Source: Alkanindiges illinoisensis DSM 15370 (GTDB lineage: Bacteria; Pseudomonadota; Gammaproteobacteria; Pseudomonadales; Moraxellaceae). Taken from it: a stretch of DNA of 32,000 nucleotides. Numbering within the stretch: the first letter of the stretch is position 1; each line of letters starts with the position of its first letter. Below are positions 8,369 to 20,750 of the stretch, piece after piece. Position numbers and translations under genes: made by a program. The notes beneath the pieces are model-generated. The model did not search any database and was not told where the DNA came from. It saw only the letters and a program-made list of their open reading frames with translations. The stretch spans positions 520,064 through 552,063 of the forward strand of contig NZ_JHUX01000003.1 of NCBI RefSeq assembly GCF_000619845.1, written 5' to 3'.

Positions 8369-10633
8369 TTAAAGCACCCGCTGCCATAATGTCACTTCCG
8401 ATAGCGTATGCTGATATTTACGCTTGGTTTCCCGAATGACAAATGGAACTTCCTGCGGCTCCTGAATCAGGTGAAAATGCTTGGCTAATAGCTCTTGTAA
8501 ACCAGCAAACGTGCTAAAAGTTTCGCCATCCTTTTTAAAGCCGCCAATCCAGTCCTTGCGTGGTGTATGTTCTGTAAGCCATGTATAGGGTGAGGCCAGC
8601 ATCAGCACGCCGCCCACGTTTAACCGTTCATGAATACTGGAAAGAAACTTTGCAGGATCATACAAGCGGTCAATCAAATTGGCAGCCAGAATAAAATCAT
8701 AACCTGTAAAGACAGGTTTGAGGTTACAGGCATCACCCTGAAAAAAGGCGACCTTATGTTTGGTGTCTTCAAGCTTTAAACCAGCCAGCGAATGGGATTT
8801 ATAAGACACTAGCTCACCTTCGTCAATCAAGGTATAACGCAAGGTTTCACCTTTAGCCAGTTGTACCGCCTGACCAATAAAGCGGGCTGAAAAATCAACA
8901 CCAGTCACTTGATCAAAATAGCGTGCCAGTTCGAAAGTAGCCCGGCCAGAAGCACAACCCAAGTCCAGTGCAGTATGTCTCGGCAGGCCATCAAGGTGAT
9001 GCTGGGCCAAAGTTGTGACGGCTAACTCCACCAGTGCCTTGCTAAAATTGGGTACACCAAAATATTCATCACCATAATGGAATTCAGCATATTCCGACAT
9101 GAGTTTGTCAGTTTCATAGTGTGAGGCTGGCACAGGATTAATATCTCCAGAGATAACATAGCGAAAACCGGCGTGCTGGAAAAAATGCCGCCGGAAGGCA
9201 TAACGCGCCGAATGCAGGCTTTCATTACCAGTCGATATCCATGAGCCGCCTTTCATCAGGTTATGGCGCTCATCAAAGGTTGGCGTACTAAAGTCATCAT
9301 AAATCGGATGGACTTCAAAGCCTTCAAATGGATAAATTGGTGTTTCTGTCCATTGCCAGATATTGCCGACCACATCATAAAACTCGCCTTGTGCAAACTG
9401 GTTCACCGGGCAGCTTGAGGCACCATGATCCAAATGGATATTGGCCTGAGCCGGTGCTGCACCAACATCACGAATGCCAGCTACATCATATAACCGATAC
9501 CATTCATCTTCAGTGGGCAGGCGCACAGCCTGGCCAGTTTGCTGCTTTTTCCAGTGACAAAAGGCCTTGGCTTCATGGTAGTTTACTTCCACGGGCCAGT
9601 CCCACGGCATGCAAACTTCTTCAGTCATCAGGCGCAAATGCCATCCATCCGGTGCTTTATGCCAAAACGTTGGATGCTCAGCTTGAGTGAATTTTAGCCA
9701 GCCTTGACCTTCGTCTGTCCAGTATTCGGCAGTTTGATAGCCTTTGGCCTCTACAAATTGCAGAAATTCCTGATTGCTCACCAAAAACTTTGAGGCTTCA
9801 AAGGAGGTAATTTCTGCTTCGTGCACGCCATATTCATTGTCCCAGCCATAAAAAGGGCTGGACTTATCTTTGGCTAATTGTACTTTGCCCGCAGCCACAC
9901 GAATTAATTGATTTTCTGGGGCAAGGCCGCTGCCATAATTGGGCTGCCAGTTGGGCGAAGGTTTGACCATTGAAAGGTCATGCTGGCGAATAAGTACGGA
10001 TGAGGTTTCCAGATGAATGCGCTCATGCTCAATCCCCATAATGATGGCCCACCACGGGTTGTTCCAGTCAATTGGCATGTGTAATGGCGCATGGTCAATT
10101 AAATCCAGTACCAGTGCGCGAACCTTGTCCCGATATGCCTTAACTTCATGCACGTTGGGCCAGTTATAGTTGGCCTCATTCAAGTCATCCCAGCTCATTT
10201 CATCCACACCTACCGCAAAAATGGATTCCATGCGCTGATCGACACGCTCATTGATTAGACGAGCAAGCAGTAACTTATTGATAAAAAATGTTGCGGTATG
10301 CCCATAATAAAAAATTAGGGGGTGGCGCAGGCTGATGGGCTTAATATAAAACGCATCATCACTGGCCAGACAGTCAAATAGCGATTCGTAAGTGTTGAAG
10401 GTATCCAGAAAATAATGTCGCAGGGTATGGCGCATGGTTGCTTCGTCACTATCGCGCAAATTAGGCGTGCGTGAAATCAGGGCAGGAGGCTTGGTTATAT
10501 TGTGCTCATCATTATGGAGTGTACCTATTACTGGCTCGGTCTTATTCACAAAAGTAGAGTTTTGATTAACATCTTTATTAGCACAGTCTTGACGTGAAAT
10601 TGCTTTTTTTTGAATGCAAGCTTCTGAAAACAT
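8369..10633 (-). CDS. ovoA: 5-histidylcysteine sulfoxide synthase / 4-mercaptohistidine N1-methyltransferase (ovothiol biosynthesis, OvoA-type three-domain enzyme)
   Basis: Three domains are visible. The DinB-like iron-binding domain has YYGHTATFFINK and GIEHERIHLETS. The FGE-sulfatase/EgtB-like domain has GNIWQWTETP and KGGSWIS. The C-terminal class I SAM methyltransferase has LDLGCASGRATFELA. The ORF opens at 10648, but ATG 10633 has a GAGGA SD 9 nt upstream. Confidence 0.85.
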   Translation of the reverse strand: MFSEACIQKKAISRQDCANKDVNQNSTFVNKTEPVIGTLHNDEHNITKPPALISRTPNLRDSDEATMRHTLRHYFLDTFNTYESLFDCLASDDAFYIKPISLRHPLIFYYGHTATFFINKLLLARLINERVDQRMESIFAVGVDEMSWDDLNEANYNWPNVHEVKAYRDKVRALVLDLIDHAPLHMPIDWNNPWWAIIMGIEHERIHLETSSVLIRQHDLSMVKPSPNWQPNYGSGLAPENQLIRVAAGKVQLAKDKSSPFYGWDNEYGVHEAEITSFEASKFLVSNQEFLQFVEAKGYQTAEYWTDEGQGWLKFTQAEHPTFWHKAPDGWHLRLMTEEVCMPWDWPVEVNYHEAKAFCHWKKQQTGQAVRLPTEDEWYRLYDVAGIRDVGAAPAQANIHLDHGASSCPVNQFAQGEFYDVVGNIWQWTETPIYPFEGFEVHPIYDDFSTPTFDERHNLMKGGSWISTGNESLHSARYAFRRHFFQHAGFRYVISGDINPVPASHYETDKLMSEYAEFHYGDEYFGVPNFSKALVELAVTTLAQHHLDGLPRHTALDLGCASGRATFELARYFDQVTGVDFSARFIGQAVQLAKGETLRYTLIDEGELVSYKSHSLAGLKLEDTKHKVAFFQGDACNLKPVFTGYDFILAANLIDRLYDPAKFLSSIHERLNVGGVLMLASPYTWLTEHTPRKDWIGGFKKDGETFSTFAGLQELLAKHFHLIQEPQEVPFVIRETKRKYQHTLSEVTLWQRVL

Positions 10634-10964
10634 TGCTAAATTCCTCATTGATTGGCTTACAGGTCACATGAAAAATGCAGAAAACTAATAGCTGTATTAG
10701 CCTGCACTTTTGGCTTAATGATTAAGACCTGTAATAAAACCCCGATTTAATACGAGCATTTAACTATTAATTTAGTGAGCCTCTAATTTGCTAAGACTGA
10801 TAGTTGTCTTTTGCTGGTTGCTTAAGCCAGAGTGCCATATTTTCTTATATTGTTAAGTAACGATATATAGTGTGCTGCTTAGTAAATTGGTATCTAGCAT
10901 TTTAAATATAATGAATTTATTGCAGCTTTTGTGATTTCGCCTACTTTGAAGTCATCAATAATGG

Positions 10965-11014: not shown

Positions 11015-12550
11015 TTAGGCGACTTTCTTGGCTTTTACTTTCACAAAATTATAGGCACTTGGCTTGATCTTGCGGGTTTCCATCCAGTAGCGCCAGGTGT
11101 AACCCGGCCAAATGGTAAAGTTTTTGCCATCGGCTTGCTGATACCAGCTCACACAACCACCATTTTGCCACACGGTGCCTTTTAGTTTTTTCTGCACGTT
11201 GTCATTAAACTCGGCCTGAACGTCTGGTTTTACATCCAGATAATCGGCCTTTTTCTTCTCAACAGTTTTAATGGCGTCCAGAATATAGTTGGCCTGTGCT
11301 TCAATCATAAAGATAATCGAGTTATGGCCTAGTGCAGTGTTTGGCCCAACCAGCTGGAACAGGTTTGGATAGCCCGCAACGCTAATGCCATAATAGGCTT
11401 CGGCACCGTCCTTCCAGTCATTCATCAGCTCGCGGCTATTCAAGCCGGTGCATGGAAAATCCTTCATGTAAATGCGCGGGTCAACAATAAAGCCCGTACC
11501 CAGCACTACACAATCTGCCTCGCGATGCGTACCGTCTTTGGTGATAATGCCAGTTTCGGTAAATTCCTGAATGCTGTCTAGAATCAGGTCAACATTTTTG
11601 CGGGTAAAGGTTGGGTAGTATTTATTGGAAATCAGGATACGCTTACAGCCCATCACATAATTGGGAGTGAGTTTCTTGGCCAGTTGCTTGTCGCCTTTCA
11701 CCTGATAGCGAATAAACAGTTCAATGGCTTTTTGCGCAGTTTCCATAATTTTTGGATGGAAAATCGGCATCACACGCGATTCATTGCTCCAGTACAAGCG
11801 GGCACGGTGAATCTGGCGGGCAAATGGCACTTTTTCAAATAATGTCTTGTCAAAGTTGCCATATTTACGCTCATCACGCGGAATAACCCAGGCTGGTGTG
11901 CGCTGGTAAACATCCAGTTGTTGAACTTTCGGCGCGATTTCAGGAATGTACTGAATGGCACTACCGCCTGTGCCAATGGAAGCCACTTTTTTACCCGTCA
12001 GGTCGTAGCTGTGATCCCATTGCGCAGAGTGGAAAATTTTGCCCTTGAACTTTTCCATGCCTTTATAGTTTGGAATTTGCGGCACATGCAGTGGGCCGGA
12101 GGCCAGTACCACAAATTTGGTTGTCAGCACAGAACCATCTTTCAGGTTTAGTGTCCAGAGCGCGCTTTCTTCATCAAACTGCGCGCCGACTACTTCGGCA
12201 TTAAATTTCAGGTATTGACGCAGGCCAAATTTTTCAGTGGTTTCCTGAATATAGTCATAAATCTCAGGACGTTCGGCGTAGCGCTTGGACCAGTCAGTCT
12301 TTGGTGCAAACGAAAAAGAATACATGTGGGATTGCACATCGCAGGCAGCACCCGGGTAGCTGTTTTCACGCCATGTTCCGCCCACGTCATCGGCTTTTTC
12401 CAGCAGTAAAAAGTCTTTACGGCCTTCCTGTAGCATGCGGATTGCCATGCCCAGACCACCAAAACCAGCACCAATAATGACCATTTCCAACACGCGCGAG
12501 GCATCGGAAGACGATCCACCATTCATTTTTGGGTTTACTGAAGCATTCAT
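11015..12550 (-). CDS. Class B flavoprotein monooxygenase, Baeyer-Villiger type
   Basis: 511 aa. It has the FAD GxGxxG motif (VIIGAGFGGLG), the GGTW motif, the BVMO fingerprint FxGxxxHxxxW (FKGKIFHSAQW) and a second Rossmann motif for NADPH (ASIGTGGSAIQ). An AGGAG SD lies 6 nt before the ATG. Confidence 0.85.
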   Translation of the reverse strand: MNASVNPKMNGGSSSDASRVLEMVIIGAGFGGLGMAIRMLQEGRKDFLLLEKADDVGGTWRENSYPGAACDVQSHMYSFSFAPKTDWSKRYAERPEIYDYIQETTEKFGLRQYLKFNAEVVGAQFDEESALWTLNLKDGSVLTTKFVVLASGPLHVPQIPNYKGMEKFKGKIFHSAQWDHSYDLTGKKVASIGTGGSAIQYIPEIAPKVQQLDVYQRTPAWVIPRDERKYGNFDKTLFEKVPFARQIHRARLYWSNESRVMPIFHPKIMETAQKAIELFIRYQVKGDKQLAKKLTPNYVMGCKRILISNKYYPTFTRKNVDLILDSIQEFTETGIITKDGTHREADCVVLGTGFIVDPRIYMKDFPCTGLNSRELMNDWKDGAEAYYGISVAGYPNLFQLVGPNTALGHNSIIFMIEAQANYILDAIKTVEKKKADYLDVKPDVQAEFNDNVQKKLKGTVWQNGGCVSWYQQADGKNFTIWPGYTWRYWMETRKIKPSAYNFVKVKAKKVA

Positions 12551-12579
12551 GTCAGGCTCCTGGGCAACAGTAGGTAAGA

Positions 12580-12600
12580 CATTTTTTTCAAGAAAAAATG
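12580..12600. promoter_or_regulatory. A/T palindrome in the divergent monooxygenase/AraC promoter region (candidate operator)
   Basis: CATTTTTT-tcaag-AAAAAATG, with perfect 8-bp arms, 30 nt upstream of the monooxygenase start codon. The sequence is low complexity, so the significance is uncertain. Confidence 0.25.
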
Positions 12601-12801
12601 TAATCTGGGGGCAATACTAAATAAGTGCGCGATGATAAACCATGCTAAGGTTGACATGGAAATTGTTTTTTTCGGCAAAAGCACTTTTTTGTAAACTGTG
12701 CTACATATTCTGTTTAGTGAAATTTGTTTCTAGCAGTTTTAGTAAAAGCATGTATTCATCATGATCAGGTTGGTGATGCAAAATGATGGCAAGGGAGAAT
12801 T

Positions 12802-13833
12802 ATGGCCAAACGTTCAGTGCTGGGATTATTGTATTTATTGCAGGGTTTGCAGGCTGCTGGTGAAGACACTCAGGCCATTTTGCATCATCTGGCTTTAGAT
12901 ATGACCCAGCTTGATCCTTCAGCTGCCATTGACCTTGAACTGGAATATGCCATTCAAAAGCAGATTGTCGGGCAGATTCGCCATCCGGCCATTGGCTTGT
13001 ATATCGGCCAGCAATTTAATCTGGCAGGCTATGGACCGCTACTCATGCTGCTGATGACCAGCCCGGATTTGCAGGAAGCCATGCGACTGGGTGTTTATTA
13101 TCAAAAAATCACTTTTTTGTTTGGCAGGCTTGCCTTAAACCAGCAGCAGGATTTAACCATCCTGACCTATGATTCTCTGGAAGCTGATCCGGTGTTGCAT
13201 CGTTTCCGGGCCGATGCTGAAATTGCAGGCACCTTAAAGCTGCTAAAAGACATGCAGGCGGCATTGGGGGTTCATATTGCGCTGGAACGGATTGATTTGC
13301 CGTTTAGCGCACCACATGATGAGCATATCTTGCAGCAATACCAGCAGTTTTATGAAGTACCGTTGTATTTTGACCAGCCCTGTGGCGCGTTTTATTGTAA
13401 AACGGTGGCGTTAAATCACCGGATTATGGTGGCTGATGCGGCTACCCATCAGCGCTATCGGCAGCAGTGTGATGAGGTATTAAAGCAATATTTGCAGGAA
13501 GAGCAGCAGGGTGTATCGATTAAGGAGCAGGTACTGGATTACCTAAAAATGCAATTACATTTTTTGCCGCCAATTGCTGCGGTAGCTACTGCCTTGGGCT
13601 TGTCCGAGCGTACCTTGCGCTATCGGCTGGCGGAACAGGACACTAGTTTTCGCAAACTGCGCGACCAGTTACGTTTTGAGCAGGCCTGCCAGTTGCTATT
13701 ATCTACTACGGATTCCATTGAACAAATTGCCGAAAAACTGCATTACAACGAAGCCTCGGCGTTTGCCCACGCCTTTATGCGCTGGAGTGGCCAAAGCCCA
13801 AACCAGTACCGCAAGGCGCAGCAGGCTAGATAG
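12802..13833 (+). CDS. AraC/XylS-family transcriptional regulator (N-terminal AraC-type ligand-binding-like domain)
   Basis: 343 aa. The C-terminal double HTH includes LSERTLRYRLAEQDTSFRKL and IEQIAEKLHYNEASAFAHAFMRWSGQSPNQYR. It is divergent from the monooxygenase gene. A GGGAGA SD is present. Confidence 0.85.
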   Translation: MAKRSVLGLLYLLQGLQAAGEDTQAILHHLALDMTQLDPSAAIDLELEYAIQKQIVGQIRHPAIGLYIGQQFNLAGYGPLLMLLMTSPDLQEAMRLGVYYQKITFLFGRLALNQQQDLTILTYDSLEADPVLHRFRADAEIAGTLKLLKDMQAALGVHIALERIDLPFSAPHDEHILQQYQQFYEVPLYFDQPCGAFYCKTVALNHRIMVADAATHQRYRQQCDEVLKQYLQEEQQGVSIKEQVLDYLKMQLHFLPPIAAVATALGLSERTLRYRLAEQDTSFRKLRDQLRFEQACQLLLSTTDSIEQIAEKLHYNEASAFAHAFMRWSGQSPNQYRKAQQAR

Positions 13834-14031
13834 ACGATAATAGACAGCCTGTAAAAAGATCAATTTCTATTGGCTTTAATGATTAGATTTTAGTCTTAGC
13901 CTATTACAACTGGAAGGCAAACCCCTTAATATACAGCTCTGCATTGAGCAGGCCATGTCAGGCATGGTGATCACCGGCTCATGCTGTAGGCAGACATTTG
14001 TTCCATAAATTAAGGTTTGAGGGTTACGCCA

Positions 14032-14789: not shown

Positions 14790-15923
14790 ATGAGTATTGA
14801 AGCGCCAGAACATCCCAGAAATCCTTATGCGCCGGATGCGCGTTCTCCCGAGCAGCGCTATACCGATGCGCTGGCGTCTGGCCAGTTTATGCCGGATGAA
14901 GAGCAGGGTGCGGCCATCCATGCACTGGATGAGGTGTGGCAAAAACTGGTGCAACGCTATGAAGCGTCAAAAAAACCATTTGGCCGTCTGATGCAGCCAG
15001 CCGTTCCCAATGGGGTTTATATGTGGGGCGGTGTGGGCCGTGGTAAAACCTGGCTCATGGATCAGTTCTTTGATGCAATTCCGTTTCGCCGCAAGATGCG
15101 CATGCATTTCCATCATTTCATGCAGCGCGTACATAAGGAACTCAATAGCCTGACTGGCCAGCGTGATCCCATGGAAACTGTGGCAGACCGGATTTATGCC
15201 GATGCTGTGGTGATTTGCTTTGACGAGTTTTTTGTCACCAATGTCACCGATGCCATGATTTTAAGCGACCTGTTCCAGAAGCTGTTTGACCGCGGCATTA
15301 CCCTGGTTGCTACGTCCAATATTGCCCCTGATGGTTTATATAAAAATGGCATTCACCGTGACCGCTTTTTGCCCGCTATTGCCATGATTAAGACCCGCTG
15401 TAATGTATTAAATGTAGATGCCGGCATTGACTACCGCTTGCGGGTACTTAAACAGGCGCATTTGTATTTATCCCCCCTTACCCACGATGCAGAAATCTGG
15501 ATGGCCAAACGCTTTGCCGCTTTAACCTGTCAGCACGAATACTCAGATGAACCAATTACGGTGAACGATCGCCAGATTGAAACGCGTGGCCGTACCGAAG
15601 ACACATTATGGTGTGATTTTGCCGAGCTTTGCATGAAACCACGTAGTCCGGCAGATTATATTGAGTTGGCCAATACCTATAACACCATTTTGCTGGGTAA
15701 AGTGCCTGTGTTAAATGACAATATTGCCGATGCCACGAGACGGCTGATTTATCTGGTGGATGAATTTTATGATCGCCGGGTCAAGCTGATTGTGACCGCA
15801 CAGCAATCCATTCTGGAATTATATCAGGGTGAAAAACTGGCGTTTGAAATTGAGCGTACCCGGTCACGCCTGCTGGAAATGCAGTCTGATGAATATTTGC
15901 AGGCAGAGCACCGTCAGGTGTAA
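14790..15923 (+). CDS. zapE: AFG1-family ATPase / cell division factor ZapE
   Basis: 377 aa. Walker A GGVGRGKTWLMD and Walker B VICFDEFFV are present, and the overall layout matches YhcM/ZapE. Confidence 0.85.
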   Translation: MSIEAPEHPRNPYAPDARSPEQRYTDALASGQFMPDEEQGAAIHALDEVWQKLVQRYEASKKPFGRLMQPAVPNGVYMWGGVGRGKTWLMDQFFDAIPFRRKMRMHFHHFMQRVHKELNSLTGQRDPMETVADRIYADAVVICFDEFFVTNVTDAMILSDLFQKLFDRGITLVATSNIAPDGLYKNGIHRDRFLPAIAMIKTRCNVLNVDAGIDYRLRVLKQAHLYLSPLTHDAEIWMAKRFAALTCQHEYSDEPITVNDRQIETRGRTEDTLWCDFAELCMKPRSPADYIELANTYNTILLGKVPVLNDNIADATRRLIYLVDEFYDRRVKLIVTAQQSILELYQGEKLAFEIERTRSRLLEMQSDEYLQAEHRQV

Positions 15924-16041: not shown

Positions 16042-17133
16042 CTAAGCCTCCATCAAGGTTGGTGTATTGATGCTATATTTCTGGTAATCCCGATACCAGA
16101 CCTGATGGCTATATAAGCCTTTTAACAGTTCAGGTGGTAGCTGGTCCTGGTAAACCTTTAATTTAAGCGACCATAAACCCCACTGGTGCTGATCTAGTAT
16201 GATGAAATTATTGGCAATAAAACGCTCAGAGGATTGCAGGATATCAGCATCATCCTGTGACGCATGCTCCAGGGTAATGCCCAAGGTACGCTGTGCAAGG
16301 TTAGACACAATATATTGCTCTGGTGAGTAGCGCCACAAGCGGTCTGGCCACAGATCATTGGTGGGTTTTGGGCGGGTTTCAAACCAGCGCGAAGTTGCAG
16401 GCTCATCCATAAGTGGACAATCAAACAGTTTTTGCATATCAGCCGTTAAACCAAAATAAGCCCAGTCCGATACATGAAACGGACGCGGCTGGATTTTGGT
16501 ACTACGATTTTTGTGTGAAGCGCTTCTGGGTTGAGTGCTTTCATATTTCAGGCTATAAACCGGGAAGCCAATGATACGCTGTTCCAGCACATGCCATGGT
16601 GCATCCACATGATGAAACTGGTTAAAATAACTGCTAAACAGGGGGTGAAACAGCAATAGGTCACTACGAATTTTCAGCGTATATTTGGTTTTAACCTGAG
16701 CCAGCCCGGCTTGTGTCGAATAAATCAGACGGTTGCCATTGTTATACAGGTTTTCGGCCTTGGCTTTTGGTTTATAGAAATTTGTAGTTCCCGGATCATC
16801 AAGTTGCAGAGTAATATCAGCATCCAGATCTTCAACCGGCTGGCCTTTCCAGGTGGATAAAATCAGCGTGGCATAGGGCAAGTGCTGCCTGAGTGCTTTA
16901 AGTACCTGCCGAGTAATGCCTTCGGGTGCCAATGGTGTTATATGGGTAAAAATTGGCCCCTGAATCACTACACTAATTTCACGGCTGTCGATAGGCTGCA
17001 ATGTGCTGATATGCGGGGCTGTGGCATGATGGCTAGAAGCATTTCTCAACGCATTGTCCTGAATAATATACTGTACCATCTGAACTGGATTTAATTTAAA
17101 AAAATTCTTATGTTTGATCATATTGACAGTCAT
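16042..17133 (-). CDS. WavE-like lipopolysaccharide biosynthesis family protein (putative transferase)
   Basis: 363 aa. The pattern ISVVIQGPI ... LILSTWKG ... DDPG ... NNGNRLIYSTQAGL ... YTLKIRSDLL resembles my recollection of the WavE family (PF07507). This is an assignment from memory, not from a search. Confidence 0.55.
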   Translation of the reverse strand: MTVNMIKHKNFFKLNPVQMVQYIIQDNALRNASSHHATAPHISTLQPIDSREISVVIQGPIFTHITPLAPEGITRQVLKALRQHLPYATLILSTWKGQPVEDLDADITLQLDDPGTTNFYKPKAKAENLYNNGNRLIYSTQAGLAQVKTKYTLKIRSDLLLFHPLFSSYFNQFHHVDAPWHVLEQRIIGFPVYSLKYESTQPRSASHKNRSTKIQPRPFHVSDWAYFGLTADMQKLFDCPLMDEPATSRWFETRPKPTNDLWPDRLWRYSPEQYIVSNLAQRTLGITLEHASQDDADILQSSERFIANNFIILDQHQWGLWSLKLKVYQDQLPPELLKGLYSHQVWYRDYQKYSINTPTLMEA

Positions 17134-17160
17134 TTCTAAAATATTACCTAATCATTTTCA

Positions 17161-17184
17161 TAGACTTCTTTGGTGAGAAGTCTA
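17161..17184. other. Perfect 9-bp hairpin in the intergenic gap inside the operon
   Basis: TAGACTTCT-ttggtg-AGAAGTCTA. The T-rich tract (TTTGTCTT) follows it only on the plus strand, which is antisense to the operon. Confidence 0.5.
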
Positions 17185-17208
17185 TTTGTCTTCGGCATCT
17201 GGCTCAAA

Positions 17209-17958
17209 TTAAACGGCGATCTGGGTAATCTGGGTGTTCATCAGCAATGGCATGCGTGGCAAGGCGCTTTCCAGTTCTTCGGGTGTGCCAAGGCAGGTAA
17301 AATGCTGGCAGTTCAGGCACTGGATATAATGCCCATCTTCAATGGCACGGTTATACAGTGGGGCAATATAAAATTCGCCCTGTTCGGTGATGTCGTTCAT
17401 CAAGGAATGCTTGATGGAATATAACATCCATGCAGTATCAGAAAAATAATAGGTTCCGGTTGAGGCCAGCCGTGAAATAATTTTCTTTTCACGTACTTCC
17501 ACCACCCGGTCAGGCTGTTCATCATGGGTTCGGGCAAAACTCCAGCGTGCATCATTCAAGGCTGATTCAAACACCACCAATCCGCCAAACACATCATCAT
17601 CCGGCATGTCCATGCTCTGGAAAGCAGTATCGGCATTATGAATCAGGGTAGGCTGGGTTAAGTCCATCATGTCGCGCGCCAGATAAACGGTTTCTGCCTG
17701 ACCACGGGTAAGACTTTCCAGAATCTTGATTCGTGGTTCAAACATGCCATAGGTTTTGTTGATGTCTTCAATAATCTGGGCGGTAAAGGCATCTTCGCGC
17801 ACAATGAAAATCAGCCGTGAAGCATATTCCAGTGGTAGCGAATTGGTCGCCCACTGATACATGGGCTTGCCCTGTACATCAATCAGCGGCTTTGGAATCT
17901 GAAAACCTGCTTTACTAAAGCGGGAACCTGCACCTGCCATGGGAATAACAATATTCAT
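17209..17958 (-). CDS. NTP-transferase-fold protein (sugar/small-molecule-phosphate nucleotidyltransferase; BcbE-like 'GT2' annotation class)
   Basis: The N-terminal signature MNIVIPMAGAGSRFSKAGFQIPKPLIDVQGKPM is the G-x-G-x-R nucleotide-binding loop plus PKPL motif. The ORF extends to 18006, but ATG 17958 has an AAGGAG SD 6 nt upstream. Confidence 0.7.
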   Translation of the reverse strand: MNIVIPMAGAGSRFSKAGFQIPKPLIDVQGKPMYQWATNSLPLEYASRLIFIVREDAFTAQIIEDINKTYGMFEPRIKILESLTRGQAETVYLARDMMDLTQPTLIHNADTAFQSMDMPDDDVFGGLVVFESALNDARWSFARTHDEQPDRVVEVREKKIISRLASTGTYYFSDTAWMLYSIKHSLMNDITEQGEFYIAPLYNRAIEDGHYIQCLNCQHFTCLGTPEELESALPRMPLLMNTQITQIAV

Positions 17959-17998
17959 TTCAAGCTCCTTGATTCGGACAATATTTTTAAGCTGGAAC

Positions 17999-18505
17999 TC
18001 AGGCACTTTCAGTGACAGTGGCGCTAGGCATGCTAGCCATCGTCATGCATCCCGAGGAATCAGCATTGTTGTTGCATGTAATCTGGCAATCAGCCGTTGC
18101 ATGTATGCTGGTAGCATCAGTTTTAGCGGTAGCTTTGCCAGCATCATCGATCAGTAGCGCATTGAGCTGCTCAACCGAAATGTCATGCCAGTTGCCATTA
18201 AAACGATAGCCACGATCATCAATGTAAATATCCGCATTAGGTTTGCCAAACCAGATTTCATCGTATTCAATCTGGTGGTCTTCCAGCCATTGCAACAGGA
18301 TTTTTCCTTGTCTCGCAATGACCATGCCCACGTTGGCATCACAGGTTTTCATGTGCCGGGCAGTGGCTAAAATAATGTAATGTCCAGCCTGACGAAGCGC
18401 TTTAAGTTTTTCGACTGCACCGGGCAGCGGTTGTACTTCGGCATAGGTCTGGTTTTCCTGTCTGATCTCACAAAGCGTGCCATCAATATCAATACATAAG
18501 CGCAT
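17999..18505 (-). CDS. Small HAD-superfamily phosphatase ('capsule biosynthesis phosphatase'-like)
   Basis: HAD motif I is at the extreme N-terminus (MRLCIDIDGTLCE). Later motifs are ILATAR and GKPNADIYIDDRG. The C-terminal ~45 aa form a low-complexity tail. A GAGG SD precedes the ATG. Confidence 0.7.
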   Translation of the reverse strand: MRLCIDIDGTLCEIRQENQTYAEVQPLPGAVEKLKALRQAGHYIILATARHMKTCDANVGMVIARQGKILLQWLEDHQIEYDEIWFGKPNADIYIDDRGYRFNGNWHDISVEQLNALLIDDAGKATAKTDATSIHATADCQITCNNNADSSGCMTMASMPSATVTESA

Positions 18506-18521
18506 TTTTAACCTCTAGTTT

Positions 18522-20459
18522 TTATACTGAAATCACTGTTTCTATACTGTTTGGTTTGGCTGGTACAACCTTGGCCGGCCAGTCCTGCTCATATTCTGCT
18601 GTCGTGTGTTGTACCGGGCTATGTTCGGAGACACTGCTTTGCCGGGCCAGCAGGTTTTGAACTGGGTCTTGAATGCTGTCATAAACTGCATTAAGCAACT
18701 TGAGTCCGGTGAGCAAAAAAGCAATCTGGCGTTTAGGCTGGTCACGATGCAAGGGTAGCATGGTTAAAAACAGCAGGCTTTCCAGCAAAATCAGTTCATT
18801 TAAGGCATAGGCTGTTTGTGCCCTGATTTTGTCAAAGAAAAGATTTTGCAGTTTTTCCAGATAGTCTGACTGCGGCATGGTGAACTCAAAATTCAGGCTA
18901 TCCTGTTCCAGCCGGAACAAGTCATTGATAATAAAGTCATATCGGCCATGCACTGAATGCAGTACTTTGGCAAGGTCATAACGCGGGTCGCCCTGATTAA
19001 CTGAACCAATAAAATCACCACGTGGGTCAATCAACCGTAATACGCCGCTGCCCGGTTCAAACAAAATGTTGGAAAAACACAGGTCACCATGCACAAATCC
19101 TATTTCTACATTACTGCTGAGTTGCTGGATTTGTTCCATCAGCCATGGTTGAAGGGTGCTAAAGCCTTGCAGGGTCTGGCCGTTGAGGCAAATGGTTTTG
19201 GCATCAAGAATTTGTTCAAGTGCGGCACTGGTTTTTGCCTGTGCTAGCCGTGCATTTAGTTTTTGTGCATAAAACTGATTCAGGGCTTCACTGTCAATCA
19301 GCCGGGGTGCATCATTGCTGACATTAGCTTCAAGACAGGCATGAGCATCAAGGCTGCTTGTCTTGGTAAATTGCTGATGAATAAATAGCAGGCGCTCAAA
19401 AATGTCATCCCAGCTTTCAACAGGCAGGGCGTAGTACACAAAGTATTGCGACAAGGATTTATAAGGATAGTATTCCAGTGAATACCATGCGGTATCCTGT
19501 GTTGCGCCTGCATCATCAATACTGAAGCTGATACCGGAATCAATCAGTCGTGGAAAGTAAATTTGCAAGTGTGCAGGCAGACTCTGGTAAAAATGCACTT
19601 CCTGCTGTAGTTTTTTGACTTCACTGGATTGCTTGGTTACCACGCCCATTTTCTGGTCAATGGACACTTGGTTAAAACAGCGGCTTGCGACCATGCTGTC
19701 ATTATTGTTGTCTGCTAAAAGGCTATTGTCCTCAGGCTTGAGCAAAATCTCTTCACAGTGCTGGTTCACCTGCTGAAAGCAGCGCTGAATTCTGGAGCCA
19801 TGCGTCAGCGTAGTTGCTGTGCGCATTGCGCGGTAGCGATGGGCAAATCCTTTAATATCCAGCCAGAACCCTAGAGAATCTGAAGCCGCCACCGATGAGT
19901 TTTTATGGATTGGGTCAGTGGTGGAATCTGAAGTAGTGCTGCTGGTCTGGCTTTCCTTGACCCATACCAGCGGACAAGAATGATGCGGATCAATTTTTAA
20001 ATATTGCAATGGATTAAAGCTGCGACTCTGGATTTTTTGCACCCAGACAAAAGAGGGATTAACCGGATCATGCCGTAAAAAAATATTAGTGTAGTGTTGC
20101 AGATATTTTTCACCCTGCAAGGTCAGGCCGCCGCCCTGCTCAAAAAACCATGAATCCCTGACTTGCAGGCATTTAAACGTGCAAGCCGGATAGAGCGACT
20201 GTAACTGCTGGATTTGCTGTTTAACAATGCCGTCCACCTGAAACAGTGCAATCAGGAATTTTTTAAAGCCATGACCAATCAGGTTTTCAATCTGTGTGTA
20301 GATTAATGGCCTGCCTTTGCTCATTGACCATGCGGTTGAGTGACAATTGAGGCTGTTTAATTCTGCAAAATCCAGATGATGACTTTCAATCAGAATAGTC
20401 CAGTCAAAGACCACAGGAAATTTTTGGCAAAACATAGCCGCAGCAAGAGCCTGAGTCAT
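18522..20459 (-). CDS. Fusion protein: N-terminal domain of unclear function (possibly a degenerate NTP-transferase-like fold), Ser/Thr-rich linker, then a C-terminal APH/choline-kinase-like phosphotransferase domain
   Basis: 645 aa. The kinase catalytic loop is VHGDLCFSNILF (Brenner HxDxxxxN) followed by LRLIDPRGDF (metal-binding D). The N-terminal segment SKGRPLIYTQIENLIGHGFKKFLIAL resembles the core of NTP transferases, but the G-x-G-x-R loop is absent. The linker is SQTSSTTSDSTTD. Confidence 0.65.
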   Translation of the reverse strand: MTQALAAAMFCQKFPVVFDWTILIESHHLDFAELNSLNCHSTAWSMSKGRPLIYTQIENLIGHGFKKFLIALFQVDGIVKQQIQQLQSLYPACTFKCLQVRDSWFFEQGGGLTLQGEKYLQHYTNIFLRHDPVNPSFVWVQKIQSRSFNPLQYLKIDPHHSCPLVWVKESQTSSTTSDSTTDPIHKNSSVAASDSLGFWLDIKGFAHRYRAMRTATTLTHGSRIQRCFQQVNQHCEEILLKPEDNSLLADNNNDSMVASRCFNQVSIDQKMGVVTKQSSEVKKLQQEVHFYQSLPAHLQIYFPRLIDSGISFSIDDAGATQDTAWYSLEYYPYKSLSQYFVYYALPVESWDDIFERLLFIHQQFTKTSSLDAHACLEANVSNDAPRLIDSEALNQFYAQKLNARLAQAKTSAALEQILDAKTICLNGQTLQGFSTLQPWLMEQIQQLSSNVEIGFVHGDLCFSNILFEPGSGVLRLIDPRGDFIGSVNQGDPRYDLAKVLHSVHGRYDFIINDLFRLEQDSLNFEFTMPQSDYLEKLQNLFFDKIRAQTAYALNELILLESLLFLTMLPLHRDQPKRQIAFLLTGLKLLNAVYDSIQDPVQNLLARQSSVSEHSPVQHTTAEYEQDWPAKVVPAKPNSIETVISV

Positions 20460-20750
20460 TTATCATTGCCTCGTTTTTAAAATCAAACTGCCACAAGCAG
20501 AATCAAAATTGTTTTATTAAGTCTGTGTGTTGGAGCATTGATTAAAGGCGATAAGTAATGTGGCTGTCGTTTTACGTTTTGTGTGGAAACACGAACAATT
20601 TGTAGCCATTGTTACGCGCCCGACGGGTTTTGAGCGAGTTTGAACAGCTTTATAGCGACGTTTGACTAATTAGTTTTTATTTAATAATGGCTTAAAAAAG
20701 CTGGAAGCCTTAACAAAAATGTCATCCTGGAATGTGATGTATCACACATT

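Follow-up and report, generated by a model that had tools for sequence, protein, structure and literature searches.

What is made by four genes of Alkanindiges illinoisensis DSM 15370 that encode a kinase fusion, a small haloacid dehalogenase (HAD) phosphatase, a nucleotidyltransferase (NT) and a WavE-like protein, and that lie outside any surface-polysaccharide locus? In this study, we analysed this operon in a 32,000-nt stretch of the genome, referred to as the window (contig NZ_JHUX01000003.1, positions 520,064 to 552,063). The initial annotation, made from the letters of the window, saw in these genes a kinase, a phosphatase and an NT that activate a donor for a putative transferase, and considered that the substrate could not be inferred. 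The logic holds, by analogy with HddA/GmhB/HddC. The substrate was narrowed to a furanose phosphate, and fructose was favoured by a kfoE deletion (ΔkfoE) in Escherichia coli K4 and by a GH32 gene in Nitrospira. We consider it likely that the operon converts a furanose phosphate to a nucleoside diphosphate (NDP)-furanose and that WavE is the transferase. The complete pathway with fructose could equally well prove right or wrong.

In the proposed pathway, the cassette would work as a self-contained, cytoplasmic unit that takes a central sugar phosphate to a nucleotide-activated furanose and on to a glycan or glycolipid acceptor. The C-terminal APH-fold domain of the kinase fusion would phosphorylate the anomeric hydroxyl of a furanose phosphate, most likely D-fructofuranose 6-phosphate, to give fructose 2,6-bisphosphate. 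The capless HAD would take off the distal phosphate to leave fructose 2-phosphate, the stand-alone NT would use a nucleoside triphosphate (NTP) to form NDP-fructofuranose, and WavE would pass the sugar to an acceptor, probably the lipooligosaccharide (LOS) core. The domain identities, the catalytic motifs, the homology to AfhE/AfhF and KfoE, the gene linkage and the purifying selection are observed, whereas the sugar, its nucleotide, its acceptor and the sequence of the reactions are inferred.

Domain structure of the kinase fusion

The initial annotation had described the first protein as an APH-type kinase fusion. The APH kinase was confirmed, and the additional part was found to be an N-terminal NT-fold domain without catalytic motifs (Table 1). 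The Pfam APH model matched weakly (23.9 bits, residues 280-502), and a single-sequence search of the PDB with the kinase protein returned nothing meaningful. The two domains appeared in an alignment of 42 homologues of the kinase fusion (alignment A1), in which K276, K283, E287, H457-G-D459, N464 and D478 are invariant; the motifs HGDLCFSNIL and IDPRG stand at residues 457 and 477. An AlphaFold model of the protein had a predicted local distance difference test (pLDDT) score of 82, and Foldseek matched the C-terminal half to APH(3'), maltokinase and choline/ethanolamine kinase. We propose that this C-terminal domain is an anomeric kinase acting on a furanose phosphate.

The N-terminal domain matched GDP-mannose pyrophosphorylase by Foldseek, and the A1 profile matched RmlA-type thymidylyltransferases at 3.8e-12 over profile positions 8-232. 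The domain is without the G-x-G-x-R loop and the catalytic Lys, in the window protein and in the bacterial family in general; where active NTs carry GxGxR...K, the window protein reads LIESHHLDF...STAWSMSKGRP. Residues 20-165 (window 19965-20402) are the most constrained part of the protein, with identities of 97, 93 and 86% and an omega of 0.04-0.07 in the Moraxellaceae clade, compared with 0.10-0.14 for the kinase domain. The linker at residues 166-255, which holds a Ser/Thr-rich insert, and the C-terminal tail at residues 601-645 evolve fast. The NT-like domain is catalytically dead yet strongly constrained and probably serves as a scaffold or ligand-binding module. Low-complexity C-terminal tails are clade-specific in both the kinase (residues 601-645, window 18522-18659) and the HAD (residues 119-168, window 17999-18151). 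Most homologues have no such tails, and their HADs measure 118-138 aa.

The HAD phosphatase, the stand-alone NT and WavE

The HAD is a capless HAD-IIIC protein, with a core of residues 1-118 followed by the low-complexity tail. Its motifs are D6-x-D8-G-T10 (DIDGT at residues 6-10), T48, K88 and D96-D97. The Pfam HAD and NTP_transferase models gave weak matches to the HAD and the stand-alone NT. The HAD matched the NCBIfam capsule biosynthesis phosphatase family TIGR01689 at 9e-22, and in the PDB it matched 1XPJ from Vibrio cholerae at 2e-18 and 9IQW, AfhF of phage HY126, at 1.6e-6. Matches to the HAD-IIIA and histidinol-phosphatase subfamily models were weak; GmhB is a member of this group. 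The HAD is proposed to remove the distal phosphate of a sugar bisphosphate.

The motifs of the stand-alone NT are intact, with G9-x-G11-x-R13 and K23 (GAGSRF at residue 9, PKPLI at residue 22). Residues 3-233 matched 4EVW, an NDP-sugar pyrophosphorylase of V. cholerae, at 1.7e-27, and the protein resembles the sugar-1-phosphate NTs RmlA, GlmU and MurU. It scored 29.3 bits with the NCBIfam MurU model, for which the cut-off is 250. The dN/dS of its gene was 0.03-0.06. The motifs quoted in the initial annotation for the three enzymes (HGDLCFSNIL, IDPRG, DIDGT, GAGSRF and PKPLI) were all found again, and the catalytic motifs of the kinase, the HAD and the stand-alone NT are intact.

The WavE protein is a member of the Pfam family PF07507, with 164.8 bits against a cut-off of 27 (3.6e-48) and with residues 53-357 aligned to profile positions 1-283 of 305. 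All 120 homologues listed among the WavE matches carry PF07507. Neither a single-sequence nor a profile search found a relative of WavE in the PDB. By Foldseek its structure model (pLDDT 94) matched remote GT-A folds alone (GT6, B4GALNT1 and ColGalT1; TM 0.3-0.4), and G59, R156, D158, D223, F227, G228 and D232 are invariant. We propose that WavE is a GT-A-like glycosyltransferase using an NDP-furanose. No transmembrane segment was predicted in any of the four operon proteins. Given four soluble proteins and the GT-A fold of WavE, the simplest reading is that the sugar is transferred to a lipid-linked glycan on the cytoplasmic side.

Relationship to the phage AfhE/AfhF system

The initial annotation considered the pathway uncharacterised. 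For the bacterial module, no biochemical assignment was found in the literature searched, whereas distant relatives of its kinase and HAD, AfhE and AfhF of coliphage HY126, have been characterised. As recounted in a 2026 Nucleic Acids Research (NAR) article citing the HY126 work (PMC13326640), AfhE is a bifunctional protein, with an N-terminal NT and a C-terminal kinase, that phosphorylates D-arabinofuranose (Araf) 5-phosphate at C1 and later forms UDP-Araf, and AfhF is a Mg-dependent HAD that takes off the 5-phosphate. The route in that account runs from Araf 5-phosphate through Araf 1,5-bisphosphate and Araf 1-phosphate to UDP-Araf, with an arabinose-5-phosphate isomerase encoded alongside (PMC13326640). 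The HY126 pathway has counterparts in RB69 and DLP3 and feeds the arabinosylation of 5-hydroxycytosine in DNA.

The AfhF encoded in the HY126 locus and PDB entry 9IQW are identical in sequence. The window HAD, which shares 33% identity with AfhF, is a capless HAD of the AfhF/9IQW/1XPJ type. The window kinase family aligned with AfhE by hhalign (98.7%, 2e-16, 347 columns), and HGDxxFSN and IDPRG are common to both; the window kinase is homologous to the C-terminal domain of AfhE, with an intact catalytic loop and metal-binding Asp. The two systems also differ. AfhE has an active N-terminal NT with canonical motifs (GAGLATR...PK), and no further NT is encoded separately, whereas in the window the fused NT is degenerate, so that no competent NT is joined N-terminally to the kinase, and a separate NT gene is present. 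Phage loci carry an arabinose-5-phosphate isomerase, and the window has no dedicated isomerase. In phages the acceptor is DNA, reached through GT-B/GT4-like transferases, whereas a glycan is proposed for the window, through WavE. The phage kinase is 25% identical over 162 aa; the phage proteins are the most distant relatives and form the outgroup of the kinase tree. The sugar of the window probably differs from the phage arabinofuranose.

We also considered the HAD as a phosphatase of glycan-bound phosphoribosyl groups, as for CrpP of Bcs3 in Haemophilus influenzae type b (Hib) and the phosphoribosyl pyrophosphate (PRPP) route to ribofuranose. This reading was dropped, as a kinase and an NT always accompany the HAD in the module and the substrate of AfhF is a free sugar bisphosphate. 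The AfhF-type HAD is widely labelled 'phosphoheptose isomerase' in phage genomes (records H29-H65) and in PHROGs (phrog_1238), a label probably carried over from the neighbouring SIS-domain isomerase gene.

KfoE of the E. coli K4 capsule locus

A blastn search with the V. cholerae block found 130 E. coli genomes and brought up the K4-type loci; the module of an Enterobacteriaceae metagenome-assembled genome gave nothing in a blastn search against E. coli genomes. The K4-type kps order is kpsMT, kfoA, kfoB, kfoC, an insertion sequence (IS), kfoD, a HAD gene (126 aa), a 522-aa open reading frame (ORF) and an NT gene, followed by ugd (kfoF), kfoG and kpsSCUDEF. The product of the 522-aa ORF aligned over its full length with the kinase family by hhalign (100%, 4.4e-50, 501 aligned columns). 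The 50-nt homology arms published for ΔkfoE (PMC7925653, Supplementary Table 3) lie at 12205-12254 and 13824-13873 of the E. coli locus in Table 1, with zero mismatches, and flank the 522-aa ORF immediately. KfoE is therefore the pseudo-NT/kinase protein.

The ΔkfoE strain makes non-fructosylated chondroitin, and KfoE is named a 'fructosyltransferase' in the literature (PMC7925653; PMC8858990). No transferase domain was detectable in KfoE. The published annotation is probably wrong, and the domain content is that of a sugar-activating enzyme. Region 2 of K4 thus holds a three-gene module, orf(HAD)-kfoE-orf(NT), that is needed for the β-fructofuranose branch and whose NT has the motif PMAGMSSRF. 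In both K4 and the window, a small HAD and a stand-alone NT adjoin the kinase fusion. Unlike the isolated window operon, the K4 module belongs to a group-2 kps capsule locus. This locus is without a WavE homologue, so that its transferase must be another protein. One K4-type locus (E686; L093 3835-14544) looks degraded, with kfoA frameshifted according to the annotation, kfoC in two ORFs and the NT frameshifted.

Identity of the sugar

D-Fructofuranose 6-phosphate is D-arabinofuranose 5-phosphate with a CH2OH group on the anomeric carbon, and the AfhE/AfhF chemistry therefore maps onto a route from fructose 6-phosphate. A GH32 β-fructofuranosidase gene (Pfam 4.5e-85) heads a Nitrospira locus with the module and WavE, in seven genomes of one lineage, and in a neighbour-joining tree of the kinase domain the Nitrospira clade is sister to the window clade. 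When the HY126 isomerase and KpsF of E. coli served as phmmer queries, no arabinose-5-phosphate isomerase was found beside the module in 86 bacterial loci. The set includes loci labelled as Clostridium, Oscillospiraceae, Bacilli, Microthrixaceae and Paceibacterota, groups that are not expected to produce arabinose 5-phosphate for 3-deoxy-D-manno-octulosonic acid (Kdo). The K4 ΔkfoE genetics, the Nitrospira GH32 and the lack of an adjacent isomerase favour fructose for the bacterial module. Fructose is presumably also a component of the V. cholerae lipopolysaccharide (LPS) core. That the module is the missing bacterial route to NDP-fructofuranose, with WavE an unrecognised fructofuranosyltransferase family, is put forward tentatively, with the balance leaning slightly against it.

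In the Nitrospira locus (L021 1333-14186) and six others, the GH32 gene is immediately upstream of a NusG/RfaH-like gene. The operon then continues with genes for Bac_transf, Wzy_C, GT4, an ABC ATPase, the kinase, a HAD-NT fusion, a DUF7796-like protein and WavE.

The main rival keeps the same logic with D-arabinofuranose as the sugar: arabinose 5-phosphate from KdsD would become Araf 1,5-bisphosphate, Araf 1-phosphate and NDP-Araf, which WavE would transfer. The enzymologically characterised homologues AfhE and AfhF carry out exactly this conversion in the account of the HY126 work. A Gram-negative bacterium such as Alkanindiges should make arabinose 5-phosphate for Kdo, and the window HAD belongs to TIGR01689. 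This family was founded on bcbF/ecbF of Pasteurella multocida, of which the type B capsule is reported to contain arabinose. However, the phage proteins are the most distant relatives, no isomerase lies beside the module even in lineages without Kdo, the sole bacterial genetic phenotype concerns fructose, and the Nitrospira linkage is to GH32 and not to an arabinofuranosidase. We regard arabinofuranose as an unlikely sugar for the window operon, though a serious contender.

Another phosphosugar could enter the same pathway, such as ribose 5-phosphate, xylulose 5-phosphate, ribulose 5-phosphate, sedoheptulose 7-phosphate or a RibB-like product, and would leave it as another NDP-sugar. In Synechococcus phage S-SKS1 the NT carries a fused RibB domain (3,4-dihydroxy-2-butanone 4-phosphate synthase, DHBP synthase), as does the pseudo-NT/kinase of the bacterial protein P0404, and this recurring link suggests a different sugar substrate in those lineages. 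An RpiB-like gene is present in one distant WavE locus, and the kinase family is of great size and diversity: 2,024 clusters at 50% identity match at E<=1e-10. However, the window cassette brings along no further enzyme for modifying a sugar and its four genes move together, so that it must use a common metabolite. Bacterial ribofuranose was reportedly traced to PRPP by Kelly and co-workers in 2022, heptose activation uses GHMP kinases, and positive evidence was found for no particular alternative. A phosphosugar of this kind is rather unlikely in the window. In S-SKS1 (L088 3613-8098), the block consists of the NT-RibB fusion, the kinase, the HAD, a transaldolase/FSA-like (fructose-6-phosphate aldolase-like) gene and a GT1 gene; this HAD is the closest phage relative of the window HAD, with 51% identity.

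Several points weigh against an NDP-fructofuranose pathway in the window. Identity between the window kinase domain and the KfoE/Vibrio clade is only 28%, and the tree places the window kinase in a different clade, which makes the transfer of the substrate from K4 to the window uncertain. The ΔkfoE phenotype shows that the module is needed for fructosylation, leaves the reaction unspecified and could be partly polar on the downstream NT. The only biochemically characterised relatives, AfhE and AfhF of phages, use arabinose 5-phosphate, and the RibB fusions to the kinase protein or the NT point to probable differences in substrate between family members. In two distant WavE loci, HAD and NT genes are present and a recognisable APH kinase is not, so that WavE is not exclusively tied to the module.

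Distribution of the module

The initial annotation treated the operon as an orphan. The core of kinase fusion, HAD and NT is a widespread bacterial module, and the operon is an orphan in this genome only. It is no isolated oddity, as the same block stands in the V. cholerae wav and Psychromonas core clusters and the three-gene core in K4. Two conserved peptide patterns of the kinase family matched 327 GTDB species genomes. For gene linkage, iterated hidden Markov models (HMMs) of the four families were run on 80 fetched loci, 60 of them with enough flanking DNA. In 55 of these 60, the HAD gene lies within 1.5 kb and the NT gene within 2.5 kb of the kinase gene, and 27 have WavE at a distance of up to 10 kb, 23 of them within 3.5 kb. 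The genes do co-occur across genomes, HAD and NT more regularly than WavE.

The proteins are also found in other arrangements. HAD-NT fusions occur in Nitrospira and Rhizobiales, one protein of 849 aa (P0499) joins an active NT, a pseudo-NT and a kinase, and a Legionella kinase is without the pseudo-NT domain. P0499 was considered as HS1.08 of Campylobacter jejuni; this was ruled out, as its N-terminus is unlike the one that the published primers imply and it comes from another organism. The commonest neighbours of the module are genes for GT4 and GT2 glycosyltransferases, hexapeptide acyltransferases, ABC-2 transporters, initiating phosphoglycosyl transferases and Wzy-like proteins, so that its usual setting is a polysaccharide locus. 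The four-gene cassette was found beside glnA in one gammaproteobacterial lineage and on a plasmid-like contig with Rep3 and resolvase genes in another. As it recurs in unrelated genomic contexts, it behaves as a portable unit. The plasmid-like contig (L004 4536-12532, a JGI metagenome contig with Rep3, resolvase, Fic and PIN genes) has the cassette co-directional with genes for a short-chain dehydrogenase/reductase (SDR), a type III polyketide synthase, a methyltransferase and a flavin adenine dinucleotide (FAD) monooxygenase; a glycosylated phenolic lipid is a possibility for the product.

Core clusters of Vibrio and Psychromonas and the acceptor

In the wav core cluster of V. cholerae, genes for a HAD, a 527-aa kinase fusion, a 247-aa NT and the founding WavE stand between waaA and kdkA. 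The V. cholerae HAD is 97% identical to 1XPJ, and the V. cholerae WavE matched the Pfam family at 2.4e-127. Window and V. cholerae proteins share 37% identity for the HAD, 35% for the NT, 29% for the kinase domain and 38% over the N-terminal 191 aa for WavE, whose C-terminal halves do not align. The C-terminal half is probably the acceptor side, and the alignment fits a shared donor and different acceptors. In V. cholerae the HAD comes first and the block lies amid waaA, kdkA and heptosyltransferase genes, whereas the gene order in the window is different and the operon is outside a core cluster. No biochemical function for the V. cholerae block genes was found in the literature. The core locus of Psychromonas arctica (L094 1170-12839), beside waaA/kdkA, has three WavE paralogues and one activation module. 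The surroundings of the block in Vibrio and Psychromonas suggest the LPS core as the acceptor.

In P. arctica, a transketolase gene adjoins one of the WavE paralogues. In V. parahaemolyticus (L091/L092 10001-13615), the block encodes a HAD of 126 aa, a kinase fusion of 529 aa and an NT of 239 aa and, coming straight after wza and wzz, is the opening part of a K-antigen capsule locus; its HAD protein was counted on 626 contigs. The block is followed by a gene for a 309-aa protein with no Pfam match or WavE similarity, a candidate alternative transferase.

For the window, an acceptor outside the envelope has to be weighed, with the NDP-sugar made as proposed and passed to a lipid or small molecule, such as a glycolipid or biosurfactant of alkane metabolism or a phenolic lipid. 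This would fit the company of the cassette on the plasmid-like contig, where it runs with the SDR, polyketide synthase, methyltransferase and monooxygenase genes. It would also fit the position of the operon, which in Alkanindiges and three related genomes is always directly 3' of an alkR-like gene and alkB, and the lack of flippase, polymerase and export genes in the window. However, synteny in one clade can be vertical inheritance, and most genomes place the module in O-antigen, capsule or core loci (Wzx/Wzy, ABC-2, GT2/GT4, WaaA/KdkA). A non-envelope acceptor is improbable, and transfer to an envelope glycan is preferred.

Operon organization and flanking genes

The four minus-strand genes and the spacers of 16 nt (kinase/HAD), 40 nt (HAD/NT) and 75 nt (NT/WavE) given in the initial annotation agree with the ORF listing (Table 1). 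With its GTG extension, the NT ORF would span 17209-18006. Shine-Dalgarno sequences (SDs) were as described: GAGG 9 nt 5' of the kinase ATG, GAGG 6 nt 5' of the HAD ATG and AGGAG 6 nt 5' of the NT ATG, with no convincing SD in the inspected sequence upstream of the WavE ATG. An NCBI protein 100% identical to the window WavE is 345 aa long, and its annotated start is therefore presumably M19. However, relatives share residues 1-18 (window 17079-17133; consensus ...FFKLN..QM...), and the structure model is confident there. Translation therefore probably begins further upstream, at M1 or M5, both of which are without an SD. A palindrome lies in the spacer before this start. It is weakly and partly conserved in three related genomes, with a five-pair consensus.

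Table 1. Coordinates of the operon features and of the corresponding E. coli K4-type genes
Feature	Sequence	Coordinates	Strand	Size or position	Remarks
Leader	window	20460-20750	minus	291 nt	between co-directional AraC/Cupin_6 gene and kinase gene
Kinase-fusion gene	window	18522-20459	minus	645 aa	ORF listing
NT-fold pseudo-enzyme domain	window	19710-20411	minus	~residues 17-250	N-terminal
APH/ELK-fold kinase domain	window	18660-19694	minus	~residues 256-600	
HAD phosphatase gene	window	17999-18505	minus	168 aa	ORF listing
NT gene	window	17209-17958	minus	249 aa	from ATG; begins MNIVIPMAGAGSRF
Palindrome	window	17160-17185		11-bp stem, 4-nt loop	NT-WavE spacer, upstream of SD-less WavE start; no strand
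WavE gene	window	16042-17133	minus	363 aa	ORF listing
ZapE gene	window	14790-15923			AFG1 ATPase
HAD gene	E. coli NZ_CP049198.1 (L093)	11884-12264			
522-aa ORF	E. coli NZ_CP049198.1 (L093)	12255-13823		522 aa	kfoE

All four genes are intact and under purifying selection, with dN/dS of 0.03-0.18 against three related genomes, and the operon looks functional. These values, together with the four-gene order that is kept in distant contigs, indicate that the genes are real and not chance ORFs. The operon region is fully syntenic in a second A. illinoisensis strain. On one side it is flanked by ZapE, and on the other by an AraC/Cupin_6 (alkR-like) regulator and then an AlkB-like gene; the position directly downstream of these two is the same in four Alkanindiges/Moraxellaceae genomes. 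Its location outside a surface-polysaccharide locus, as initially described, is true of this genome: no other polysaccharide gene was found within the 32-kb window, and no flippase, polymerase or export gene. There is also no waaA, kdkA, heptosyltransferase or other core gene in the window, so that the LPS-core location of the WavE family does not apply here.

The 291-nt leader presumably holds the operon promoter. Promoter-like and terminator-like sites were no commoner between 15800 and 21900 than in shuffled sequence, and Rfam gave no match in the leader or elsewhere in the window. Other genes of the window include a PIN-domain gene (2504-2896) and one with DinB_2, FGE-sulfatase and methyltransferase domains (8369-10648), the combination of the ovothiol synthase OvoA. 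The latter adjoins a flavin (Baeyer-Villiger-type) monooxygenase gene at 11015-12550, and both are unrelated to the operon finding.

Discussion

The operon resembles several known activation systems. HddA/GmhB/HddC, which makes GDP-D-glycero-α-D-manno-heptose, has the same logic: a kinase phosphorylates the anomeric position of a sugar with a distal phosphate, a HAD phosphatase takes that phosphate off and an NT forms the NDP-sugar. However, HddA is a GHMP kinase, whereas the window kinase has an APH/ELK fold and does not belong to the GHMP family, and there is no GmhA in the window. AmgK/MurU, of UDP-MurNAc salvage, is like the window in combining an APH-fold anomeric sugar kinase with a minimal sugar-1-phosphate uridylyltransferase; AmgK/MurU/MupP is unlike it in that the phosphatase acts before the kinase, in a recycling route with no transferase-linked cassette. 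A LicA/LicC-like activation of a phospho-alcohol, of the CDP-choline or CDP-ethanolamine type and with WavE as phosphotransferase, an analogy named in the initial annotation, is highly improbable: the APH fold does resemble choline/ethanolamine kinases by Foldseek, but Pfam gave no PF01633 choline-kinase match in the kinase protein, a dedicated phosphatase such as the window HAD has no place in that route, the NT resembles sugar-1-phosphate NTs (RmlA, GlmU, MurU and 4EVW) and not LicC, the WavE fold is GT-A and not LicD, and the homologues AfhE and KfoE are tied to sugars.

β-Fructofuranose is part of the fructosylated chondroitin of E. coli K4 and of the C. jejuni HS:1 capsule, glycans of medical and industrial relevance, and presumably of the V. 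cholerae LPS core. For the HS:1 capsule, a 2025 paper assigned 'activation and transfer' of fructose to one gene, on genetic grounds only. The literature searched, which covered few subscription journals, held nothing relevant on NDP-, UDP-, GDP- or CDP-fructose or fructose 2-phosphate in bacterial glycan synthesis, and the readable part held no activated fructose donor or enzymology for bacterial glycans. Likewise, no biochemical characterisation of the bacterial module was found in that literature, outside which most subscription journals lie, so that prior publication is possible. The initial annotation had asked whether the proteins match a characterised locus. They do as far as a genetic phenotype and locus assignments go, and not as far as a biochemical assignment of the bacterial module, of which none was found.

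The logic of the pathway is known, from AfhE/AfhF of phages and, by analogy, from HddA/GmhB/HddC. The operon differs from the phage route in its split architecture with a pseudo-enzyme, the lack of an isomerase, the WavE partner and probably the sugar. The pseudo-NT domain is a clean example of a dead enzyme domain kept inside a pathway.

If the operon and its relatives make NDP-fructofuranose or another NDP-furanose, thousands of 'hypothetical' genes would gain a function. KfoE would be re-assigned from 'fructosyltransferase' to sugar-activating kinase, and the WavE family would gain a donor substrate. A fructose pathway would account for the fructose in K4 chondroitin, presumably for that in the V. 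cholerae LPS core and for that in many uncharacterised glycans in more than 10 phyla, and its enzymes would be available for the chemoenzymatic synthesis of furanoside glycans and for vaccines. In Alkanindiges, the cassette 3' of alkR/alkB might decorate LOS or a glycolipid linked to growth on alkanes, and the window operon is a compact four-gene version of the pathway that could be directly reconstituted.

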